From Stegostoma tigrinum (Eukaryota): DNA of 64,000 bases. The stretch is from assembly GCF_030684315.1 (NCBI RefSeq), contig NC_081396.1, positions 186,001-250,000 of the forward strand, given 5' to 3'. The position numbers and the translations under genes were made by a program. Positions 10,331-63,859 of the stretch are shown here, one piece after another. Position 1 is the stretch's first letter. Every line of letters starts with the position of its first letter. Under the pieces are notes generated by a model that made no database searches, was not told where the DNA came from, and worked only from the letters and a program-made list of their open reading frames with translations.

Positions 10331-11767
10331 ATCGTCGTTGCTTTCTGGGAAAAGACGTTGTCCCTGAATTCCTGACTGGATCTGTTATATTTCCAGAGTG
10401 GGCTGTGTATTTTCCACATAGGTAGGATTTGAGTCCTCGTCCCTGGGTCATAAGCTCAGGCGTTTGGAATCTTTAACCCCAGTCCCGCCTCTGTGTGTGC
10501 CCTGAGCCTGATTGCGACTGATGGTGGATTTTTCACTCCTTTCGGAGTGCTGGTAAGCTGCCTTTCGATTCTGTGTTGCTGGAATCAACACGGTTTGTGA
10601 GTTGTCGCCAAAGCCTTCCTAACAGTGGACAGCCTATGTGACCGCTGGTCTCCACCGCCTTTGCTCCAATGAGAATTGTCTGCCAGGCTTTTGTTTCTGG
10701 ACTTCTCATTCCTGTTTGACTTTATTTTCTGCAAGACCACTGCCAAGTCGTTTGACAAACGGCTAAGTCCTGCCCCCAGCAGCAGGAAAAACGAGGAGAG
10801 GGTGAGGAACAAAATTAAAGTGGGTTTGGGGACGAACAATGACTCCTAATTCCTGTTGGTGAAAGCTGGTTTGAATTTCTTTGCCGAGCGCGTATGGTTT
10901 CCTGATTTTGGTGATTTGTGTATCTCAAACATCCCCCCGCTCCCCCTCAGCCGCCTGAGACTTTTGCGCCCGGACATTTGGAAAGGTAGCGGGGGGGGTA
11001 GGGGGCGTGTTTGTAAGGATGAGGCTGTCCCTCTCTCAGCCTCCTGCAGCTGCTGAAGACGCCTTGACTGAAGCTGAAAATCGCCCTGCAGCCAGGTTGC
11101 TTTGTTTCTTTTTATTTTTTAGGAACCACACGTGAATTTATCCAGTCATTATTATCATGTTGCAGTTTGTGAGACTGTTGTGTGAATGAGACACTGCCCT
11201 GTCCAGTCGTCAGCAGTAGGGATGGAATTCAAAGGGTTACTTCAGTTTGGACTGTGACACGCTGCCGATGCGCACTGAACTGGCAAATGGTGCTAGGCGA
11301 ATGAATATCCCCCACGCCCCCCTCTTTGGTATATATTTATTGTACAGTGACAATCCCCTCTTTTCCCCATGTATGTACTGACGTTAATGCAATAAACTGT
11401 GAATTGATCCAATGCACTAATAGCTGTATAGACTTCTTCTAGCACCCTTAAGTCTCTATCAGCAAACGTCTTTCCAGCGCCTGTCCATAGATGCTGGTCT
11501 GGCAAGCAGCATCCATTAAAAAGAATTTTTTTTTGTAAAGATATCACCTGTGCTTTGCAATCTCCAACTGGAGACTTGCTGTCCTGACAATAACATAAGA
11601 AACAGAAATGTGAGTAGGTCATTCAGCCCCTTGAGCTGCCATTCAATAGGACCGCAGCTGATTTTTTAGCCCTCAAACCCATGCCGATCGAGATGGATGT
11701 GTTTTCAAATAAAACAGAAGCAGGCAGCCAGAAGACGTTTTGATTCAGCCCAGCATGGTTGGAGGGT

Positions 11768-12355
11768 TGGCACTGAGGAGCGGGCACTATCGGAAGGTCA
11801 GTGCTGAGGGAGCGGGCGCTGTCGGAGGGTCAGTGCTGAGGGAGCGGGCACTGTCGGAGGGTCAGCGCTGAGGGAGAGGGCACTGTCGGAGGGTGGCACT
11901 GAGGGAGTGGGCACTATCGGAGGGTCAGTGCTGAGGGAGTGGGCACTATCGGAGGGTCAGTGCTGAGGGAGCAGGCGCTGTCAGACGGTCAGTGCTGAGG
12001 GAGGGGGCACTGTCGGAGGGTCAGTGCTGAGGGAGTGGGCGCTGTCGGATGGTCAGTGCTGAGGGAGGGGGCACTGTCGGAGGGTCAGCGCTGAGGGAGC
12101 AGGCACTGTCGAAGGGTCAGTGCTGAGAGAGGGGGCACTGTCGGAGGGTCAGTGCTGAGGGAGTGGGTGCTGTCGGAGGGTCAGCGCTGATGGAGCGGGC
12201 ACTGTTGAAGGGTCAGTGCTGAGAGAGGGGGCACTGTTGGAGGGTCAGTGCTGAGGGAGGGGGCACTGTCGGAGGGTCAGCGCTGAGGGAGCGGGCGCTG
12301 TCGGAGGGTCAGCGCTGAAGGAGCGGGTGCTGTCGGAGGGTCAGTGCTGAGGGTG
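11768..12355 (+). repeat. 32-bp tandem minisatellite (CAGTGCTGAGGGAGCGGGCACTGTCGGAGGGT), about 18 copies
   Basis: Period of 32 seen directly (unit starts at 11801 and 11833). Resembles a widespread shark minisatellite family. Confidence 0.95.
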
Positions 12356-12361
12356 GACTGC

Positions 12362-34477: not shown

Positions 34478-34800
34478 TGGTAATGTCAGTGGACTCCAAA
34501 CCCAGAACTTCAGGCTCATGTTCTGCGGACATGAGTTTGAATCCTATTGTGGCAGATGGTGAATTCAATGTAAATCTGGAATAAAAATCTGGCCTAATGG
34601 TGACCGTGCAATGATTATCATAAAAACCCGTCTGGTTCCTTTTGGGACGGAAATCTACCATCCTCACCTGGTGTGGTCTGCACATGATTCCTGATCCACA
34701 GCATTCTAGATGGCCCTTGACTGCGTTCTGGACAAGTCGGGATAGGCAATAAACACTGGCCTTGTCAGTGGCTCCCACATACGAAGAATAAACAAAAACA
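34478..34800 (+). mobile_element. SINE (SacSINE/Deu-domain-like) with LINE-derived tail
   Basis: tRNA-like head (GGTAATGTCAGTGGACT...GAGTTTGAATCC), core GGAAATCTACCATCCTCACCTGG, tail GGCAATAAACACTGGCC. Confidence 0.7.
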
Positions 34801-36660: not shown

Positions 36661-39249
36661 TTACTAATCTCTTTGTGTCCCACACGAACCACTAGATCCT
36701 TGGATATTATTCACTGCAGGGACATGCTTGTGTTTTGATCTATGAATCCTTATTTAGTTTCTCTGACATGTCTCTGTATTGATTTGATTTATTGTTGTCA
36801 CTTCTGGAGATACAGTTAAATGTGTTGTTTTTCTTGCTCTACAGGTGGATCGTAAAATACAAAGTGCATCAGGGCCACAGAATAGAGTGCTGAATGCAGT
36901 GATACAACAGCAGAGAAAGTGCAAAGAGAGAGATCAACATTAGCTTTTGAGAGGCCTGTTCAAACGTCCAGTAACAGTGGGGAAGAAGCTGTTGTTGAAT
37001 CTGATCGTCCTTGTGCTCCAACTTTTCTATCTTCTGCCCCACAAAAGAAGTTGGAAGTTAGTATAACTGGGGTGAGAGGGGTCTTTAATGATGTTGGTTG
37101 CTTTCCCAAGGCAGTGGGAAGTATGGATGGATCAATGGACTGAAGGCTGGTTTTGGTGATGAAGTGTCTGTAGAGTCCTGTGGTTTTGAGAAGAGCAGTT
37201 GCTATCATATATCTGCTATTACAGATTCTCTTGTCTCTGCCTACAATGGACCTACATTTGTCTTTGATAATGTTTTCCACTTTACTAACGTATAGAAACG
37301 CTTCCACCCTTTGTTACGTTCCTTGCTATTGTATACTCATATCCTATGTTCTCTTTCTCAGTTTCTTGGTCCTCCTTTGCTTAATTCTGTGTTAAGAGTT
37401 TGATACAATTGGAGTAGTTTTAGTTCTTTCTGATTTTCAACTGCGGTCAGGGAAAATTCTGGCCAGGCATCATTCAAATAACTACACAGGTCAGTCAGGA
37501 TGTACAAAGCACAAGCTCATGAGTGAATTGAGTGCAACCTTCAAGTATCATGACAGAAGTCTCACAGAAGCTGTCACATGTAACACAGAACTGGTGATGT
37601 TCACTCAGAAACAGTGGAGGCTGAACTGACTTACATCTGATTTGCAGAGCAGAGGGAGATGAAACCCAAGAAGACCATCGAGCAGTTTTAAGGTGGAGGT
37701 AGATTGATCTTGACAAACGAGGGAGTCAAAGGTTGACAGAGTGAGACGGGAATGTGAATTTGATATCACAATTAACTCAGCCATAAAATTATTCAATAGT
37801 GGAGCAGGCTTGAGTGGCTGTTTAGCCTATTCCTATTCCTAATTCATCTGCTTGTCTGTTCATATTAGAGTGTAAAATCCAGAGATGAACATTCAGTTCT
37901 CATCAGTGGGCGAGGGAAAAGGAAGGCAACATATCATGTAATTCCACATGCAGAAAAAAGTTAGTCTGGCTGTTTACATCCAGAACAAAACCTCATCCTC
38001 TCTTGGCAAAGATAAAGGGGGAAGATAAGCATGGGATTGCTTCACCCGCAACAAAACCAATAAGCTGGTGATCAAAAACAGTTTCAGCGTCAAAACCCAA
38101 AACCATTCACTGTCAATGAAACAGGTGCATCTTCCACAAGTGTGGGGTGTCTGTTATTTTAGATGCCGAGAGAAGGAAAGCCCAGACCATCAAGATGACC
38201 GGAAAAGCCTGAGGAAACAGAAAAAGTGATCAAGGAAGAATGATGGGCTGTGACACGGCCATTCACAGAGTATGTATCTCCATTTCAAGATAGAGACTGG
38301 CCACAAACCCTCACGGAGTCCCTGAAATTATATGTTTGCCCAAATTTCATTGTGAGAACAACAATTCTGACTGAGGATAGTGACTAGGATGGGTTTACTG
38401 GGAAAACAGCAGGCTACTGCAAATGCTCTGTCCCTGATCCCTGAGGCAAGGCCTGATCAAGACGAAATAGCCCTTGTTGAAGATGCAGAAATCTTTACTT
38501 TCTCAGTGTGACAAAACACTGCAATTTTCACTGAAACATAACTTTTAGAATTCAGAGTTCACATTGGAAGCAAATGGATGTTGGTTACCAGAGTGAAAAG
38601 CTTTCTTTAAAAATAAGGTCAGACAGACCTTTCAGCACAGTGATTAGAACCAGTATTTGGTCAGAAAGCGGATGAAGCAGATCCCTGTACTGTTAATGCA
38701 AGATGTTTACACTGTCATGCTTGTGTCAGGTGAGGGAAATATGCAAGGCCATGAGATTTGTTCATTGATCTGAGAAATCCAGGAGGAACATTACTTTTTA
38801 ATCTACTGATAAAGCACCGGAATTAAATGCAAAAGCAAGTTTTGTTGCTCTCTCAGAAAGTATGAGGGTAGTTCAGGGAGCAAATTCTTGCAGTAGAAAG
38901 ATTTAGTTTACAAACTGTCCAGCCCAGGAGTGTTTGGTCTGCCATCTGGAGGGGCAAACTGAGAAAGGTGAAACTTTCAGGTTTGTGAAAAGTTCATGTC
39001 AGCAGAATTGGAAAGGACTGATCGAACTGTCTCGATAGCCCACTGCTACGTAACAAACTATCAGAAGTTAGTTTAGTAAAACCCTGAAGAGCTGGAATAG
39101 CAGTGTAATTTCTCTGGACTTGAGTCTCGACCAGAGATGTTGGAAACAGGCTGAAACTTTGTTGCATTGTGCTCTGTAGAATCATTTTAATTGCCTTCTG
39201 TGTGTAGTTAGTTTGATTTTTCTGAATTTCATCTTTTTGTTTTTTCATT

Positions 39250-39580
39250 AACAGGATGAGGTCATTACTGGCGAGGGCAGCATTTATGAAATGTCTCTAA
39301 TGGGCCAAAGGGTGGTCATGAGTCAGCCACATTGCTATGGGTCTGGGATACAGCGGCCAGACCAGTTAAGAATGGCAGGTTCCTTCCCGAAACGTCATTT
39401 GTGAACCAGATGTGTTTTTTCTGACAATGGATTCATGGTCATCATTAGATTCTTATTACAGATATTTATTGAATTCAAATTGCAGCATTTGCCATGGTGA
39501 GATCCAAATCCAAGTCACCAGGACATTGCCTGGGTCTCTGGATTAACAGTATCGTGATAATACCACTCAGCCATTGCCTC
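39250..39580 (-). mobile_element. SINE, same family as 34478-34800
   Basis: Reverse complement of the same head and core; similar to the copy at 59460-59810. Confidence 0.7.
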
Positions 39581-42500
39581 CCCTTCTGTGCAATAAATGT
39601 CTGATCTGTTATTGAAGAAAATCTGCAGCCTCACGTCAATATGTTTCAATAACTAACCACCACATTAACCAAACAAACAAAATCAAATGCTGAACTATAA
39701 GGTCAGATTCCATGCTTGGATCTGACTGACCCAAACTACTGTCAGCTCGGATTACAAGAAAAAGAGACACAATTCTCTCTGTCATACTCAGTGACTGAAT
39801 GAAATTAGGGAGGCACAGAATCTGTTGAAGAATATGCACGGTACAGAGGATACTGTGCCAAAGGATGACCAGCTGACATGTCACTCTGTCCGACCACGGT
39901 AACTGATGGAATCTGAATACAATTAAGAAACCTGTTATTGAAGCTAGTCTCTGTAATGCTGACCATGAAACTGTCAGTGATTGTTGTAAAAACCTAACAG
40001 AAAGAAATCTGTAATCTTTGCCTGGTTGGGTCCAGGAAGTCACAGAGTCAGAGAGACCTACAGCACAGGAAAACCCCTTTGGCCCATCACATCCAGTCAG
40101 GACATCCACCTAACTGTGCTCATCTACTTTTCCAGCACTTGGCCCACAGCCTTAGCTTGGCACCACGAGTGCACGTTGAAATATTTCTCAAATGTTCTGA
40201 CAGTTTCTGCTTTGTGACTTCAAACCCACAGTGATATAACTGACACATAACTGCCCTCTGAACTGGTCCAGCGAGACATCGATTCCCAGGAATTAGGGAT
40301 GGGAACAAATGCTGCCTTTGCCTGTGACACCCATCTCCCTTGAAATAATATTTAAAAATTCTCTGGCAATGAGTGGGCAGATAAGTGTGGAACCGACGAG
40401 GACAGTCCCATTCTGCTGGACACTGGAAGAGGATGGTGGTGATCAATTGTGTGAAACGCTGCTGACACATTGAGGAGGATGAGGAGGGACAGTGTACCCC
40501 GGTCACAGTCAGAGTTTGTCATTTGCATCAATCATAAAGATTATTGAAGCAAATATTCCACAGGTAGAGTGACCAGCCCTGTAGGATGTGACAGTGTAGG
40601 CAGAAAATTTGCTTCATGTGAGAGACAACTGCCAAGTTTCAGTTCTAATACATCTATTAAACACGTTCTAACAGAATCTCTCAATGTGCAGCAATTGTTG
40701 TTGGATATTGGAATAGAAATCGGGGGAAATGATGATGGAGTTGAACAGATTTCTGGTTCCATCACTTGAGGAGAATGTCACTCATACCGGGACTGAAGCC
40801 CAGGAAGGCTGTATTGACCATGGTGAAGGTGCTGTGAAGATTTACCAGTATGATACCAGCTAAAAAGGTTACAACAAGACATCATTTATATTGTTTTGAC
40901 TTGTCTTGCCTCAAATGTGGCATTTAGAAGATTGAAGAGTGATGTAATTGAGAAGTTCAAGCTGATTAAAGACTAAAGAGTATAAACACAGAGAAATAAT
41001 TTATCTGGTGGAGGTGGGGGAGCAGATCGTTAAAATTTAAGCCAGGCATTCAGGGGCGCTGTCAAGAAGTATTTTCTGACACAAAGGTTGGTGAAAATCT
41101 CAAACTGTCTTCCCTGAGAAGCTGAGATAACAAGGTGTAGAGCTAGATGAACACGCAGGCCAAGCACCATCAGAGCAGCAGGAAGGCTGACAACTCAGGC
41201 CTAGACCCTTCTTCAGAAATGATCTTCCCTGAGATGCAGATGAGACTGGAGAATGATGTAAAAAGTTCAGCACTGAGATTGACGGCAATTTTCTGAAAGA
41301 AGCATCAAAGGATCTAGAACCGAGACCGGTAGGTACACCTCAGCCATGACCTACTTGTGAGTAATCAAGGGGCTGAATGATATACTCCAGTTCCGATTTT
41401 CTTTTGTATTTGAACAGCATTTCACAGTGTGCAGCTGTCAAGTTATAAGAAACAGGTCTGATATTTTCATTCATGGCTGTCAGACGTGTGAAACTTAGCA
41501 ACAACCTCATGTCTATTTCCTTCTCCTTACATTTCCTGTGAGAGTTGGCAGCATCACAGAAACTGAACAGGGGGCCTCCCAGAGAGAACAGTGTTACTAA
41601 AAAGAATAAGCACAGTGTTTTACATATGGAAATATGCTTCTACTTAGTGACCAACACCAATGATTGATTCTTGTATTTACCCAAAAAAGATCAGACCAAC
41701 AGGACTAAAAGTGTGAAAGGAAAAGAGGCTCAAAAATGAGTCTCCTTGTATGAGTAGAGAATAATCTGTCCCTCGGACAGAAACAGCACAGACTGTCTCT
41801 AAAGTGGAAAATCTTCACACTAAATTTGAGGAACTCTGTCATGATTTTAAACAAAGATACTAAGTGAGTTTACCAGTAAACGGGAGTTTGGCTCAGATTG
41901 AAGGTGGTGTTTACCTGATGAACAACAAAATGAATTAACGATGAACAACAAAATGAATTAACCTTGTGATCAAGAAAAAGTAAATCATTCTTCAGCTGAC
42001 CTATGAATCTGCATCATTCAAAGCCCATTTACAATCCACACCGTCCTGGGATTACCACCCATTTAATATCCTTCCACATTTTATGGACACAGTATCCTGA
42101 CCTCTAAATTTATTTACTCCCTTTAATCTCCTGAGGAAAGCCTATGGGGGAATAGTCTCTGGCTTTCAAACACAATTGAAGAAATCTCCTGAACATTTAA
42201 CAATTCTCACATCTCCGTCATCAAGACTGAGCCTGGATCCTCAGAGAAAGTCGGAACTGCCGATGCCGGAGTCCAAGATAATCAGGTGTGGAGCTGGAGG
42301 AACACAGTAAGCCAGGCGACAGCGGAGGAGCAGGAAACTGACATTTCAGGTCTGGGCCATTTCTGACGAAGGGCCCAGACCCAAGATGTCAGCTTTCAGG
42401 CTCCTCTGATGCTGCCTGTGCCTGGATCCTCCACCCTTCCAGAATCCATTCTGTCCCCTGTAGTATTGATTCTCTGAAACAGAACCTGCTCCTCATCGAT

Positions 42501-44869: not shown

Positions 44870-45310
44870 TCACAGAATGTGGACATGAGCGGTTGGGCTA
44901 TTTTTCATCTGTAAATGCCCTTGAGAAACTGGGGTGATCTACCTTTTTAAACTGCTTCGGGGGTTGGTGGCGGGGTTGGGGGGGACATGTAGCTGCAGCT
45001 GTCAGGGAGACAATTCCAGTATTTTGACTCAGTAATGATGAAGGAACAGCGATGTCGTTCCAAGTCAGGATGGTGTGTTGTAGGGGAACCTGCACGTGGT
45101 GGTGATCCCATACACAAGCTGCCCCTGTCCTTCAGTCCGGTAGAGGTTGTGGGTTTGGAAGGGGCTGATGAATGAGCTTTGGTGAGTTGCTGCATTCCAC
45201 CGTGTAGGTTGTTCATACTGCTACCACTGTAGAGGTGTTGAATATTGATGGTAGTGGATAGGGGCCACACAACCCAGCTGCTTTGTCCTGGATGGTGCCA
45301 AGTTTCTTGA
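44870..45310 (-). mobile_element. LINE (CR1/L2 clade) 3' end
   Basis: Minus-strand 3' LINE sequence (TCCCTGACAGC...CAGTTTAAAAAGG...TTCTCAAGGGCA); same family as 52540-52880 (+). Confidence 0.6.
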
Positions 45311-45312
45311 AG

Positions 45313-45970
45313 GAGATATCTGCACACCAACTGGTGTCTTCTTTCTGTCGCCTGTTATCTCTCTCTCTCTCTCTGCCTCTATCTCTCTCTTTCTCTCATG
45401 GAGATGTCTGCACACCAACTGGTGTCTCTTTCTGTTGCTTGTTATCTTTCTCTCTCTCTCTCTCTCATGGAGATATCTGCACACCAACTGGTGTCTCTTT
45501 CTGTTGCTTGTTATCTTTCTCTCTCTCTGCCTCTCTCTCATGGAGATATCTGCACACTGACTGGTGTCTCTTTCAGTTGCCTGTTATCTTTCTCTCTCTC
45601 TGCCTCTCTCTCTCTCTTTCTCTCATGGAGATATCTGCACACCAACTGGTGTCTCTTTCTGTCGCTTTTATCTTTCTCTCTCTCTGCCTCTCTCTCTCTC
45701 TCATGGAGATATCTGCACACCAACTGGTGTCTCTTTCTGTCGCTTTTATCTTTCTCTCTCTCTGCCTCTCTCTCTCTCTCTCATGGAGATATCTGCACAC
45801 CAACTGGTGTCTCTTTCTGTCGCTTTTATCTTTCTCTCTCTCTGCCTCTCTCTCTCTCTCTCATGGAGATATCTGCACACCAACTGGTGTCTCTTTCTGT
45901 CGCTTGTTACCTTTCTCTCTCTCTGCCTCTCTCTCTCTCTGTCATGGAGATATCTGCACACTGACTGGAA
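45313..45970 (+). repeat. Tandem repeat, 9 units of about 70-88 bp: GAGATATCTGCACACCAACTGGTGTCTC plus a (CT)n spacer
   Basis: Unit starts at 45313, 45401, 45470, 45543, 45628, 45706, 45786, 45866 and 45947. Confidence 0.95.
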
Positions 45971-46067
45971 TCTCTCAGTTTCTTTGCTGTTCACAAGCAC
46001 TTTATTTTTGAAATAAAGAAACAGGACAAACTGTGGCAGAATCTTTAATCTGATTATTGCTGCTGAT

Positions 46068-46294: not shown

Positions 46295-46340
46295 ATGGGG
46301 ATTCTTCCTTATCTCTGCGTCCTCCTGCTCTGTCTGACAG
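46295..46340 (+). CDS. IgW: IgW VH leader exon (MGILPYLCVLLLCLT/G)
   Basis: ATG at 46295, hydrophobic signal peptide, phase-1 donor GTGAG at 46341, 120-bp intron ending TTATTCACAG at 46460. Confidence 0.93.
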
Positions 46341-46460
46341 GTGAGAGCTCCCGAGGCTTTCTCCCCACACAGTGAGGCTGCTTCTTCCCAGATTCTGTGA
46401 CTCTGTTTATCTGACTGGTTTATTAAAGTGAGCTCTCTTCTGTTTCTCTTTTATTCACAG

Positions 46461-46759
46461 GTGTCCGGTCTGGGATCATGCTGAACCAGCCCGAGTCAGT
46501 TGTGAAAAAGCTGGGGCAGCCTCACAAACTGATCTGTTCAGTGAGTGGGTTCAACCTGGATGACTACGTGATGCACTGGGTCAGACAGGTCCCCGGGAAA
46601 GGCCTGGAATGGTTACTCAATTACAAGCAGGGTGGCAGGAGTGAATATGCACCTGGAATTCAAGGCAGATTCGTCCCTTCAAAAGGGTCCATCAGAGTCG
46701 CCCACCTGGACATCAGCGAACTGAGAATGGACGACACTGCCATCTATTACTGTGCGAGA
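46461..46759 (+). CDS. IgW: IgW heavy-chain variable (VH) segment, germline and in frame
   Basis: GVRSGIMLNQPESVVKKLGQPHKLICSVSGF...MHWVRQVPGKGLEWLL...YAPGIQGRF...DDTAIYYCAR has the canonical Cys-Trp-Cys. 'QPESVVKK' and 'YAPGIQGRF' are IgW-like. Confidence 0.95.
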
Positions 46760-46798
46760 CACAGTGAGAGGATGTGAGGCTGGACTGGCACAAAATCT
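46760..46798 (+). other. VH 23-bp-spacer recombination signal sequence
   Basis: CACAGTG (46760-46766), 23 nt, ACAAAATCT (46790-46798). Confidence 0.95.
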
Positions 46799-47111
46799 CA
46801 CTGAGCGAATATCGTCAGGGGAATCAGTGAAAGGGAAGAAATGATCACGCAGCCCCAGCTATCAGCAAAGCTTCATTCCCTTCCTGGCTTTCCAGTGAAT
46901 AGGGAAATGTGATTATTCACAGAGGATTCCTGCCGCTGGCGACACGATGGGAAGAGGATGTCGGGACGTGAACAAAGATTTCTCTGGACTGAAACAGGAG
47001 AGGGCATCCCCGGGCAGGGAGGCTCAGAGCAGCATTGCTCACTTGGAGCAGTGTCAGTGCGATCAGTTTAAATGTGAAGTGACTGTATTTCGTGACAGGG
47101 AAAGTGGAGGA

Positions 47112-47193
47112 GATTCATGTAGAGCTCTCCATCGCGGTGTGTATACGGCTGGGTCACAGTGAGAGAAATGGGAACCCTCTCCATTCAAAAACC
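47112..47193 (+). other. IgW: D1 segment (coding 47140-47154, TGTATACGGCTGGGT) flanked by 5' 12-RSS and 3' 23-RSS
   Basis: 5' side: GATTCATGT (47112-47120), 12 nt, CGCGGTG (47133-47139). 3' side: CACAGTG (47155-47161), 23 nt, TCAAAAACC (47185-47193). Confidence 0.88.
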
Positions 47194-47533
47194 GAGCACA
47201 GGAAAACAATTAAAACTGCACTCACTGGGTGCTCTCACTGGCCTTCAGCTCCAGAGCAGTGGATATAAATCAGATTCCGATTCAATAACCTGGATGTGGG
47301 AAGAACTTGCCATGAAGCTATTACTTGAAAGATGAAAAGAGCAGTGATGAACAGAAGAACAATGATGAAAAAATAAAAGTTTTTGTGGATTTGTCTCATC
47401 TTCCTGCACAGTACTGAAAACCCCAGCATTGACTCCTGGTGTGTGGGAGACACACAGAAACAGAGCGGGGAGTTCATGAAGTAGCCAGCTGTTTGTCCGG
47501 GATGTTTGATTTCAGGCTGGATCCTACAGCTGT

Positions 47534-47602
47534 TGTTTCTGATCTTGGATGAAGCATTGTGATGGATACAGCACCACAGCAGCACAAAGCTTGACATAAA
47601 CA
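47534..47602 (+). other. IgW: D2 segment (coding 47562-47574, ATGGATACAGCAC) flanked by 12-RSS on both sides
   Basis: 5' side: TGTTTCTGA (47534-47542), 12 nt, CATTGTG (47555-47561). 3' side: CACAGCA (47575-47581), 12 nt, ACATAAACA (47594-47602). Confidence 0.85.
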
Positions 47603-47922
47603 GCCCCGTTCCTAATGACCATGTATATCCATGGATTTCCCATTCCTGTTTCCCAGAGTGAAATATCTAGACACTGGCTCAGATTGTCAGGGAAAATGTT
47701 GATTTCTGGGAGAATAAAAGGCAAAAAGGAGGCAATTCTGTTTCTGGGTAACCTGCAGGATCTGGTGTCAACAAACAGGAAAAATGTGAAAACATTACTG
47801 GATACATTTGGGACAGGATTAAGATGGAATTTCAAATGAAAATACAGGAAGTTGCTGCTCCAGGTTCCAACACAGTTTATATTTACATTCCCTGGGGATT
47901 ATTATATACGGTGCTCAGGGTC

Positions 47923-47961
47923 AGTTATTGTATTGGGTGAATAAAGAGACAGAGCACAGTG
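47923..47961 (-). other. JH 23-bp-spacer RSS
   Basis: AGTTATTGT (47923-47931), 23 nt, CACAGTG (47955-47961). Confidence 0.88.
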
Positions 47962-48004
47962 CTGGACTACTGGGGCAGCGGAACCTTTCTGGAAGTGACT
48001 TCAA
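47962..48004 (+). CDS. IgW: IgW JH segment (LDYWGSGTFLEVTS)
   Basis: WGxG motif; phase-1 donor GTAAG at 48005. Confidence 0.94.
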
Positions 48005-57171: not shown

Positions 57172-57653
57172 GTAAGTAGACTCTGAGAGGGAGTAAGGAT
57201 ACCCTGTCAGAAATTCAATCTTCTAATAACCGAATGTGCGAGCACTTGCTCACAATTTTTGAATCACTGACATTGATTATAAGAACGGCGGTGGGGGGGG
57301 GGGACACTTAGTATTTTCTGTTTTGATATTAAAACCACATCTAACTGAACTATTGTAACGTAAAGCACTGAGGCTATTTAAACCCTCATTCAATTTTACT
57401 TGATGTGACTGCAATAGAAATGAAAATGGGGCGAGATGTCAAATGGTCTTCTGAAAACATTCACACTTCAAATCACCTTCGGTTTCCTCCCACTGCCATC
57501 CAAGTGCTGTTTTATTAAATAAATCTTTCGAATGCTGAATTTGAATGAATTACCATGATGTGCTTCAACCATCTCCCAAGGGAGCCAGTCCCTGACAGAA
57601 GCAGGAGAGCTAAAAATGTATAACATTTAAATTTGTATCTCTTCCAATTCCAG

Positions 57654-57802
57654 GTGGATGTACTCCTCACACTTGTCCTCCTCGCTCTTGTTCTGAGTCT
57701 CCGCCAGTCCTGCTCTACCATACTAACCTTAATGTGACCCTCAAAAATGGTGAAAAGCACCAATATAACTGTGCCAATCAAATGTGTAAAATAAAGTTGT
57801 GA
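57654..57802 (+). CDS. IgW: Secretory tailpiece exon of short-form IgW: [49 protein letters not shown]
   Basis: Pyrimidine tract and CAG at 57653, in frame (phase 1) with the C2 donor. 5 Cys and an NVT sequon. Resembles the Cys-rich tail of elasmobranch short IgW/IgX. AATAAA at 57790 and 58032. Confidence 0.88.
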
Positions 57803-59459: not shown

Positions 59460-59810
59460 TTTATTCATTCACAGGATGAGGGTGTTACTGGCTAAGCAGC
59501 ATTTATTGCCAATTCCTAATTGCTCAGAGGGCAGTTCAGAATCAACCACATTGCTGTGGGTCTGGAATCACATGTAGGCCAGACCAGGTGAGGATGGAAG
59601 TTTCCTTCCCGAAAGGACATGAGTGAACCAGATGTTTGTTTCCAACAATTGAGAATGGATTCACAGTCAGCGCTTGACTTTATTGAATATTTATCAAATT
59701 CAAATTCCACCATCTGCCATGGTAGGATTCGAACCCAGGTACCCGGGACATTATCTGGGTCTCTGGATTAACAGTCCAGCAACAACACCACTCAGCCATC
59801 ATCTCCCTCT
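59460..59810 (-). mobile_element. SINE (SacSINE/Deu-like)
   Basis: Reverse complement has a tRNA-like B box (GGTTCGAATCC) and the same core as 34478 and 39250. Confidence 0.72.
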
Positions 59811-61053: not shown

Positions 61054-61371
61054 TTCCACAAAAAAGTCCCGAGGTCAGATTGCTGCCTCCACCAGCCCAA
61101 GAGACCAAGAATCAGAGCAAAGTTACACTCGAGTGTGTGATCACTGGATTCTACCCAGACCTCATACAGGTCTCCTGGGAGAAGGACAGCAGCCTGATCT
61201 CCTCCAACACCCATGCTGGCCTCACTGCTCTGGAGCAGACAGGGACATTCAGTGTCAGGCACTACCTGACTGTGAACACAGAGGAGTGGAGGAAAGGTTC
61301 AGTCTTCACCTGTGCAGTGTCTCATCCACCGTCCAACTTTACCAGCAGGAAGGAGGTGAAGAATGTCCAAG
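61054..61371 (+). CDS. IgW: IgW constant exon C4
   Basis: 89-bp intron from C3. PEVRLLPP...VTLECVITGFYPDLIQVSWEKD...EWRKGSVFTCAVSHPPS. Donor GTAAGT at 61372. Confidence 0.94.
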
Positions 61372-61538
61372 GTAAGTCCTGGGCCTGGTGACAAGATTAA
61401 TGTCACTTATCCTCATAGAAACTCTTCTTACACCAGTTTGAAGAAGAGAAAGTTGTGGGCCTGAGTGGAACTCCACATTCCCTACCACAGGGCAATGGAG
61501 GTGAAGATATTTGTTACCAAAGTCAGGAGCTCTTCCAG

Positions 61539-61695
61539 TTTGAGACTGGAACAGAACCCTTCTTATTCCTGGTGGGAATGGTGGATACTCTTGTTCTCGC
61601 TGCATGGCAAGTTTCCTGTGTGAGGCTAACTTTGACATCACTTTCTCTGAAGGCAATATAAATGTGACCAACAAATAGAGTCCATTGATGGGTAG
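61539..61695 (+). pseudogene. Decayed second secretory tail exon (paralogue of 57654-57802)
   Basis: SCSRCMASFLCEANFDITFSEG aligns without gaps to [29 protein letters not shown] (compare QYNCANQ) follows in a shifted frame. The acceptor is damaged. Confidence 0.7.
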
Positions 61696-61854
61696 TTTGT
61701 GAACACAATCATGTTGATCTGATAAAAGGCTGTTCCATTGTAATGATGTTGGTCATCAATGTAATTGCTGAGAGAGAACACAAGAATTCTGCCATGTCCT
61801 GTGCAGCCCAGTAAACTTTGAGAACCTTTGATCATTGAAAGACAAACTATTCTA

Positions 61855-62565
61855 TTCAGATTAGAATTAGAGTTGGCTTTACTGTCATGTGCACTCAAAT
61901 GAGTGCAGTGAAAAGTTTGCAATGTTACTGCTTATGTCCATCTCAGCGACAGATAAAGGTACTTGAGTATTTGTTCCATAATTGAAAGAACAAAACATAA
62001 AATTCAGCACAGGAATACAGAAATTTTAAAAACAACTTGAATTACTCAAAAAGTCTGGCATAAGAATAAAAAGGTTTTTAAGAAGTGCTCAAATTACAGT
62101 CCTTTTCACCAAGTCTGCGCCTGCACCTCAACTCCAGAGTGCACCAGGTAAATCTCCAGATCACACAAGGCTTGAAAAATCCAAGCCTGGCTTCCAGTGT
62201 GCAAGGGCCTTGCCTCCCCGGTGCTGGCCTCCAGTCCAGGACCCGCCCTGGGACTCAACCCCCTGCACGAGCATCTGGTCTGGGACTCGCCTCCTGGCAA
62301 CAGCCTCCGGCCCAGGGCTTTCCTCCCATGTTGGCCTGGTCTCGCATTCGCTCCCACGCTGGCCTGCTCACAGACATACCTCCAGGATTCATCAGTGATG
62401 TCCTCTGGTCTGGGAGTCACCTCCTCCATTCTCTCAGGTAAGTTAAGACATTAAAAGTTTGGGAAGAAAAAAATGCTGCAGAAAAGGGAAGAAAGAAAGA
62501 AAAGAAAAGGATCTGGGGCAGGAGAGTAGCTCTGGCTGGAGTACCCGAATCTGATGCCATCTTCC
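61855..62565 (-). mobile_element. Probable interspersed repeat (non-autonomous, LINE-derived) in the C4-C5 intron
   Basis: GC-rich block with a minus-strand start AAGATGGCATC and a simple-repeat/AT-rich tail. No recognisable protein; family not identified. Confidence 0.4.
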
Positions 62566-63538
62566 TGATGTACCCATCATCCAGGTATTGGCCAAAGTCC
62601 ATGATAGTTCAAAACTCAGAAAATAGTTCCGAAATTTATTTTTGTTTTGAGGAGGAAATGAAAATGAACATTGTTCGCTCAGCAGCATCAGAATTTCACA
62701 ACAATGAGGAGCATTCTCCACCTCTCTGAGAGCTTACACGCTGAGAGATCACCATACATTCCAGATTGTTAGATGTCAACACTTGGTCATTTTCTCATCA
62801 CTAATGTGGATGTTGAATCCCGAGTCAAATTACTGACTGTACCCAGTGTTTATTAAACCACAGAATATGAAAGTCTTCAGAATGAACAATCTCAATTTGT
62901 CAATACATTTAGCATAGAATTGTTTTTTTATCATGCTTAAAAAGTGAGCAAGGGAGAGAAACCAAAGCTCTGTCAAGTGAATAAAAGCCACATTCTCATC
63001 AGACATCATGTGCAGAATATCATCTAAGAATGCAGTCAGGGGAAAAGACTCTCAAAGCTCATTAAGGATGTCATCCTGATGCAATAATAGTTATCCTTTA
63101 CAATGCATTCAAGAGTTACATTGCAATTTCCTACAGGGAGAAGAGTTGTGGCTTTTGGGTGCAATGTGCTTGAAAAGTGTTCAGAACATGTGCTGAACTG
63201 TGGGATAACAGAAATGACTGATGGTTTAGAAATCAGTAGCAATGGGGAAAATGTGTGATGAGTTTGGTGAACCATCCAATTTCTTCTCCCATGACTCAGA
63301 CATGCAAGTACAGAACAGGATGTACATGTTATGCTCAAACGACCCCCGAACTATAGCACAAGGGGGATTTTTGTCACTTTCAGGCACACAACAATGTTGA
63401 AGACTAATTACTGCCTTTGATAGAGCCCAGCAGGGTATCAGTTTTATGTGTAATGATGAGCATGAATTGTCAGCCATGCAAGTGACACTGACATCCCACT
63501 GGGGAGTTAGGGAGTAATAATTGTCATTGTCCTCCCAG

Positions 63539-63859
63539 ATGAATGTTTGGACACTGGAATCTTGGTCACCTTAAGCAAGCCTCCTTTTGAAGAGATCTGG
63601 AGGAACAAAACAGCAACCATTCTGTGTGAGATACTTCACCATGATTTACAGGGAGTCAGGGTAACCTGGAAAGTGGATGGAATCATGAGACAAGATGGAG
63701 TGAAGACCCAGGGTCCCAAGAAGAATGGACATGAAGAGATAATCTTCAGTAGACTGACGGTCCCTGCTGCAGAATGGGAGAGTGGCGTAGAGTACATGTG
63801 TTTGGTCGAGGATGAAAATTTGCCAACGCCAGAGAAGAGGTTCATTAGGAAAGCCCAAG
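63539..63859 (+). CDS. IgW: IgW constant exon C5
   Basis: Acceptor CCTCCCAG at 63538. DECLDTGILVTLSKPPFEEIWRNKTATILCEI...VTWKVDG...EWESGVEYMCLVED. Donor GTACGT at 63860. Confidence 0.94.

Follow-up and report, generated by a model that had tools for sequence, protein, structure and literature searches.

IgW heavy-chain genes carry six to eight C exons, and IgW is secreted in forms of 2, 4, 6 or 8 domains, the short form having a Cys-rich tail, as described in PMC4279169, PMC5192425, PMC6795676, PMC12227049, and bioRxiv 10.1101/2022.06.22.497154. The closest described systems are the secreted IgW chains of nurse and horn sharks. Zhang, Du Pasquier, and Hsu reportedly described two interspersed secretory exons in nurse shark IgW in 2013. 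Among the proteins themselves, the nurse shark 4-domain secreted form (P0028, AGY29600.1; P0031, AGY29602.1) bears a Cys-rich tail after C4, the tail of the nurse shark short form (P0038, AAT02198.1) starts with GGN, and horn shark secreted IgW (P0077, P83743.1; P0081, P83742.1) has its tail after a C2-type domain, not after C4. A relic exon after C4 was not found in the literature searched; Zhang 2013, Rumfelt 2004, and Smith 2012 may describe one.

The window (the whole 64,000-nucleotide stretch of zebra shark DNA analyzed here) contains a single IgW heavy-chain cluster, unrearranged and on the + strand, with exon borders checked for AG/GT. A single V/D/J set occupies 46295-48004, comprising the leader and open VH (46295-46759), two D-like segments, and a JH ending at 48004, with recombination signals at 46760, 47155, and 47961, and it is followed by one C region; no further Ig match was found in the window upstream of 46000. 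The C region consists of C1 (55342-55662), C2 (56872-57171, a paralogue of C4), the intact secretory exon Sec1 (57654-57802, encoding a 49-residue tail with 5 Cys and carrying AATAAA at 57790), C3 (60668-60964), C4 (61054-61371), and C5 (63539-63859), and the window stops before C6. These five domains are 97-100% identical to the Stegostoma tigrinum RefSeq protein P0023 and 86-92% identical to the best nurse shark IgW; for C4 alone, identity to P0023 is 99%, and to nurse shark IgW 92-95%. The nearest proteins to C1-C3 are of the nurse 6-domain type (P0024/P0044; 86, 90, and 91%), and the cluster is probably of this type. Elsewhere in the window, a high-copy interspersed repeat lies in the C2-C3 intron (59460-59810), with copies at 34637-34796 and 39240-39582, and tandem-repeat arrays lie at 11758-12356 and 45303-45980, the latter directly upstream of the V leader.

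Behind C4, the stretch 61545-61678 (+ strand, ending in a TAG stop at 61676-61678) is, judged by its alignments, a true homologue of the Cys-rich secretory-tail exon: it would form a separate exon behind a C2-type domain, and it matches known tails. We refer to it as the relic. When both strands of the window were searched by nhmmer with the Sec1 region, 61493-61676 was the sole other match with E < 1 (E = 0.048). A tblastn search with the nurse shark 4-domain secreted tail recovered QYKCDQQ (7/7) at 61654-61674 with E = 0.002, second only to Sec1. In addition, the horn shark tail aligned to the in-frame part of the relic with a score of 54, a value that none of 10000 shuffles and none of the 7016 other six-frame windows attained. 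The horn shark tails had come from a representatives search with four matches, one of them an IgW tail; the other three were unrelated repeat proteins and were discarded. These three lines of matching bear out the sequence-only reading, which had called a degraded secretory-tail exon behind C4 in an IgW cluster, and the letters it quoted are present, namely SCSRCMASFLCEANFDITFSEG, encoded at 61589-61654, TTCCTG/GTGG at 61571, the CAG at 61538 that leads to Val-stop, and AATAGA at 61674. The homology to Sec1 that it proposed to check by alignment was likewise recovered by nhmmer, although plain DNA alignment to Sec1 was weak when taken by itself (24 of 1000 shuffles against the whole intron, 61 of 1000 in a second test, and 121 of 500 under looser scoring). 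In an HMM of six tails, the two halves of the relic scored E = 0.3 and 2.7, beneath an unrelated match at E = 0.077, because the frameshift splits the relic in two. Searching proteins with the 43-residue relic frame gave 0 matches among nine candidates, so that no protein bearing the relic tail was found, which is weak evidence; two metagenome scans returned no shark locus, and an ESM Atlas search with the nurse tail returned only unnamed short proteins scoring 0.76.

The relic resembles the tails of P0028 and P0031 in its position after C4, in its N-terminal extension with P-x-G-N, and in QYKCDQQ, but it is only 33-38% identical to them, and the frameshift removes the distal Cys pair; both nurse tails are nearer to Sec1 (65%) than to the relic. 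Its in-frame part best matches the horn shark tails, with which it shares L-x-x-P-G-G-N and S-C-S-x-C-M, but at 39% identity, with a 5-codon gap that deletes a Cys and with core residues lost. From 61572, it starts with GGN as does the P0038 tail, to which Sec1 is 80% identical. With Sec1, which is intact, the relic shares a homologous acceptor site, TTCCAG/GTGG in Sec1. Altogether, the six intact tails of horn, nurse, and zebra sharks are 50-96% identical to each other, even with horn shark, the more distant species, among them, as compared with 32-39% between the relic and the intact tails.

Several changes separate the relic from a functional tail. A 10-nt gap relative to intact tails lies at 61653-61654, and beyond it the conserved 3' block (61654-61675), which encodes QYKCDQQ in a shifted frame, matches Sec1 at 18 of 22 nucleotides, out of frame. 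Consequently, with the gap and the stop at 61676, the distal Cys pair and the K-x-K end are not reached in frame. The relic retains one of the eight invariant residues of the core L-x-Y-x-T-x-L-x-V-x-L-x-N-G derived from the six tails, and it has three Cys, as compared with four to six in intact tails. Where core residues differ, the replacements are conservative (L>F at three positions, V>I), and an N-V-T sequon arises in the shifted frame. Conservation with respect to Sec1 is uneven: the middle matches at 35 of 66 nucleotides, and the 3' block is so much better kept that plain decay does not account for the pattern. The block overlaps AATATA, TATAAA, and AATAGA, part of a set of polyadenylation-like hexamers at 61655-61679; the AATAGA at 61674 stands where Sec1 has AATAAA at 57790, and an AATAAA occurs at 62065. 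AATAGA, AATATA, and TATAAA are minor polyadenylation variants.

At the 5' end, the relic reads TTCCTG/GTGG at 61571, so that TG (61570-61571) replaces the AG of Sec1 and of a related shark (organism C, run X16), a change that falls on a Pro third codon position (CCT vs CCA). Both X16 contigs over the site have A at 61570 (TTCCAG/GTGG). On this comparison, the A>T change at 61570 is specific to the zebra shark lineage and the AG is truly lost, as had been claimed from the sequence alone. The converse, an ancestral T at 61570 with a misregistered acceptor, was rejected as less parsimonious, given the AG in Sec1, in organism C, and in an upstream duplicate copy. The register of the acceptor is also supported by the in-frame readings upstream of it, which agree among Sec1 (VSLPIPGG), the relic (TLLIPGG), and the horn tails (VNLPVPGG). 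However, the Pro-codon site is an acceptor in carpet-shark Sec1 and is read through in the horn tails and the nurse C4 tails, which begin 6-8 codons upstream of 61570. Since the change is silent and such tails start upstream of it, the loss of AG need not matter, and that the loss at 61571 is what silenced the exon is not shown. The end of the Sec1 intron (57626-57653) itself reads FVSLPIP in frame, like the N-terminal part of the horn tails (VNLPVP), and it seems, on this likeness, that the carpet-shark Sec1 acceptor shifted about 27 nt downstream and that former coding bases became its pyrimidine tract.

Exon homology extends upstream of 61572 through a duplicated segment of the LPVPGGN type, present as two 27-nt copies (61518-61571; LPV-stop-DWN and LLIPGGN) that probably arose by tandem duplication. 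The first copy contains a stop at 61541-61543, the CAG at 61538, and an in-frame GAG at 61544, 6 nt downstream of that CAG. When the intron upstream of the relic is aligned to Sec1, the register is that of the first copy (33/65), not the second (18/65). Counted from the GAG acceptor at 61544, the relic has an open frame of 44 residues; from the lost 61571 site, the frame holds 35. Acceptors were assessed by pyrimidine counts only. A further CAG at 61554 would open a different frame, over 61555-61659, for a hydrophobic peptide of 35 residues (EPFLFLVGMVDTLVLAAW...); with its weak pyrimidine tract (5/15), it is probably incidental.

Comparison with organism C places the frameshift in time. This shark is represented by one run, in the form of contigs, and an RNA origin of the run is a guess. 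Its record 14 aligns to window positions 61285-61676 unspliced, passing through the C4 donor; it is free of gaps and differs at 42 of 392 letters (~89% identity). Because this alignment is gap-free, the 10-nt gap is common to both sharks and older than their split. The divergence of record 14, 10.7% over mixed exon and intron, falls inside the range of six other intron pieces (6.7-15.7%). Other X16 contigs encode the exact nurse tail of P0028, and this intact tail aligns on Sec1, not on the relic; together with record 14, it indicates that organism C has both an intact C4 tail and a degenerate one. At 61587, organism C has G, at equal depth from both contigs that cover 61570, so that the zebra shark Tyr codon (TAC, 61586-61588) reads TGC (Cys); a Cys was thus likely lost in the zebra shark lineage. 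This Cys>Tyr and the A>T at 61570 are the only changes in the relic that are shown to belong to the zebra shark lineage. Among the substitutions listed for organism C, two fall in the relic. Downstream, at 61620-61860, the mean depth of run X16 is 141.7 as compared with 62.7 expected from contigs ending at 61676, which makes it probable that the alignment of organism C resumes farther downstream, past an indel at the would-be polyadenylation signal.

Other runs bear on splicing and on the assembly. One contig of run X5 splices C3-C4-C5, joining 61371 to 63539 across the relic, and another covers Sec1, starting at the Sec1 acceptor; both carry differences and may come from sister clusters. No spliced joint entering the relic was present among the contig joints listed. 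Positions 61379-61860 in run X5 and 61379-61619 in run X7 are uncovered, and these blanks were not used as evidence. In run X1, which may be the source sample, a single contig covering 60482-61906 differs by 13 substitutions, is free of gaps, and lacks A at 61570; the 13 differences imply at least another haplotype, and an assembly error is therefore unlikely, contrary to the alternative that had been allowed for. Separately, in an X5 contig over 57171-60700, the C3 joined to C2 differs at its 5' end, and several places in run X1 show additional contigs of roughly half depth; these contigs point to further IgW clusters or alleles in zebra shark.

Taken together, these results make it probable that the stretch after C4 is a long-dead pseudo-exon, the relic of an exon duplication and not a recently lost antibody form. 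The gap-free state shared with organism C, the loss of the core, the identity of 32-39% to intact tails, and the C4-C5 splicing seen in one run argue for this. A tail-exon homologue would likely have lost its coding function before the zebra shark and organism C split, would since likely have been skipped as intron, and would have acquired A>T at 61570 and Cys>Tyr by later drift. That the similarity is a matter of chance or of assembly error is hardly credible and is already largely refuted: the marginal Sec1 DNA alignment and the low rank of the relic halves in the HMM would favor it, but the horn and nurse tails match independently, in two frames, colinearly and at the expected location, and the run X1 contig is concordant. 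The sequence-only reading had instead proposed that the relic is the counterpart of an intact second secretory exon of nurse shark, recently inactivated by several lesions in this cluster (acceptor, deletion of about 10 nt, and polyadenylation change). Here, the gap and the out-of-frame block were confirmed, but they are not specific to the cluster, as organism C shares the frameshift in a gap-free alignment. QYKCDQQ and the N-terminal extension common to the relic and the nurse C4 tails, along with the lineage-specific A>T, fit a recent breakage; against it stand the deletion state in organism C, whose intact tail is separate, and the 33-38% identity to nurse C4 tails next to 92-95% for the adjoining C4. 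We consider such a breakage quite improbable, and it is already contradicted if record 14 is the true orthologue.

It is somewhat less improbable, though still unlikely, that the relic is a third kind of tail, diverged yet still in use, which would furnish a 4-domain secreted IgW with a frameshift-derived end; splicing would occur at the AG that organism C retains and, in zebra shark, perhaps at the in-frame GAG (61544). The frame that stays open for 35 or 44 residues, the conservative core changes, the new N-V-T sequon, the hexamers near the stop with the AATAAA at 62065, and the AG and extra Cys retained by organism C at 61570 and 61586 all count against a dead exon. However, seven of the eight invariant residues and the distal Cys pair are gone, the CAG 6 nt upstream of the GAG would give Val-stop, and record 14 is unspliced at the C4 donor, with no spliced form among the X16 matches listed. 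Equally doubtful is the extended form of this proposal, in which carpet-shark IgW clusters would have a hidden third secretory exon, spliced in nurse shark and used here via the upstream duplicated acceptor, to yield a 4-domain secreted IgW with a frameshift-derived tail end and a glycosylation site. A more plausible alternative, but one that we hold only tentatively, is that the cluster makes a tailless 4-domain chain, either by retention of the C4 intron (GKSWAW-stop) or via the CAG at 61538 (Val-stop), so that no isoform class is lost. Reading through the C2 donor (57172-57177) gives GK-stop and through the C4 donor (61372-61392) GKSWAW-stop, and two nurse proteins end in a similar way, P0029 with GESWAWC after C4 and P0042 with GK after C2. 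These records may nevertheless be incompletely spliced cDNAs, and no such zebra shark transcript was seen. A tailless chain is compatible with an old relic and does not exclude it.

An old relic raises the question of its origin, on which the domain pairing in the cluster bears. C2 pairs with C4 (score 192, 39%) and C3 with C5 (171, 36%), as compared with a score of 59 for C1 and C3. The duplicated unit behind the tail exon that follows C4 is thus C2-Sec-C3, not the C-C-Sec module that had been suggested, and the relic would descend from a duplication of C2-Sec-C3 into C4-Sec-C5. A C2/C3 exon-pair duplication in IgW and IgNAR, in agreement with this pairing, is described in PMC12227049, the accessible part of which mentions neither a secretory exon moving with the pair nor a relic after C4. 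Later C3-C4 repeats are present in nurse, bamboo, and other sharks. Bamboo shark, epaulette shark, and ray models (P0001-P0017, P0046) have at least three C3-C4 repeats and up to ~1400 residues; compared with the window C4, the last C4 of bamboo sharks is 64-68% identical and thus much more diverged than their inner C4s (80-87%).

The position of a C4 within such repeats may relate to what follows it. At one site, 12 nurse C4 domains could be matched by pattern (two further proteins were unmatched). Five of the 12 have Ala, of which two lead into a tail, one into read-through, and two into another C3; seven have Thr, as does the window C4, and precede a C5-type domain in six cases and another C3 in one. 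Ala is found in the C4 of both nurse 4-domain secreted proteins and in the first C4 of two of three eight-domain proteins. The intact nurse 4-domain tails could then be encoded by another, better preserved copy that lies after the first C4 in 8-domain clusters and is absent here. This assignment of intact tails to the first C4 and of the relic to the last is unproven, as it depends on one residue and has an exception, P0047.

For the antibody repertoire, what matters is that the C4-C5 intron of this cluster contains no intact tail exon, so that the cluster probably does not produce the known Cys-rich 4-domain form. The proposed loss of the 4-domain form thus stands in that no intact tail exon is left in the intron, and it falls as a recent breakage, given the frameshift in organism C. 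The products of the cluster would be the long form and the Cys-rich 2-domain form; alternative open tails from it are possible as far as its sequence goes, and isoform repertoires that differ between clusters are plausible. If the relic were still used, an unrecognized antibody tail would be added, and with a third tail exon, clusters would differ in the type of tail and not only in domain number. If, as we think probable, the relic is old, the slot after the last C4-type exon would hold a decayed tail exon, a modest refinement of the known IgW gene organization, relevant to comparative immunologists only. The Cys-rich 4-domain secreted form would then need a separate copy that some clusters do not have, which would provide a testable rule linking a cluster to its secreted form as well as a dated marker of the C2-C3 duplication.
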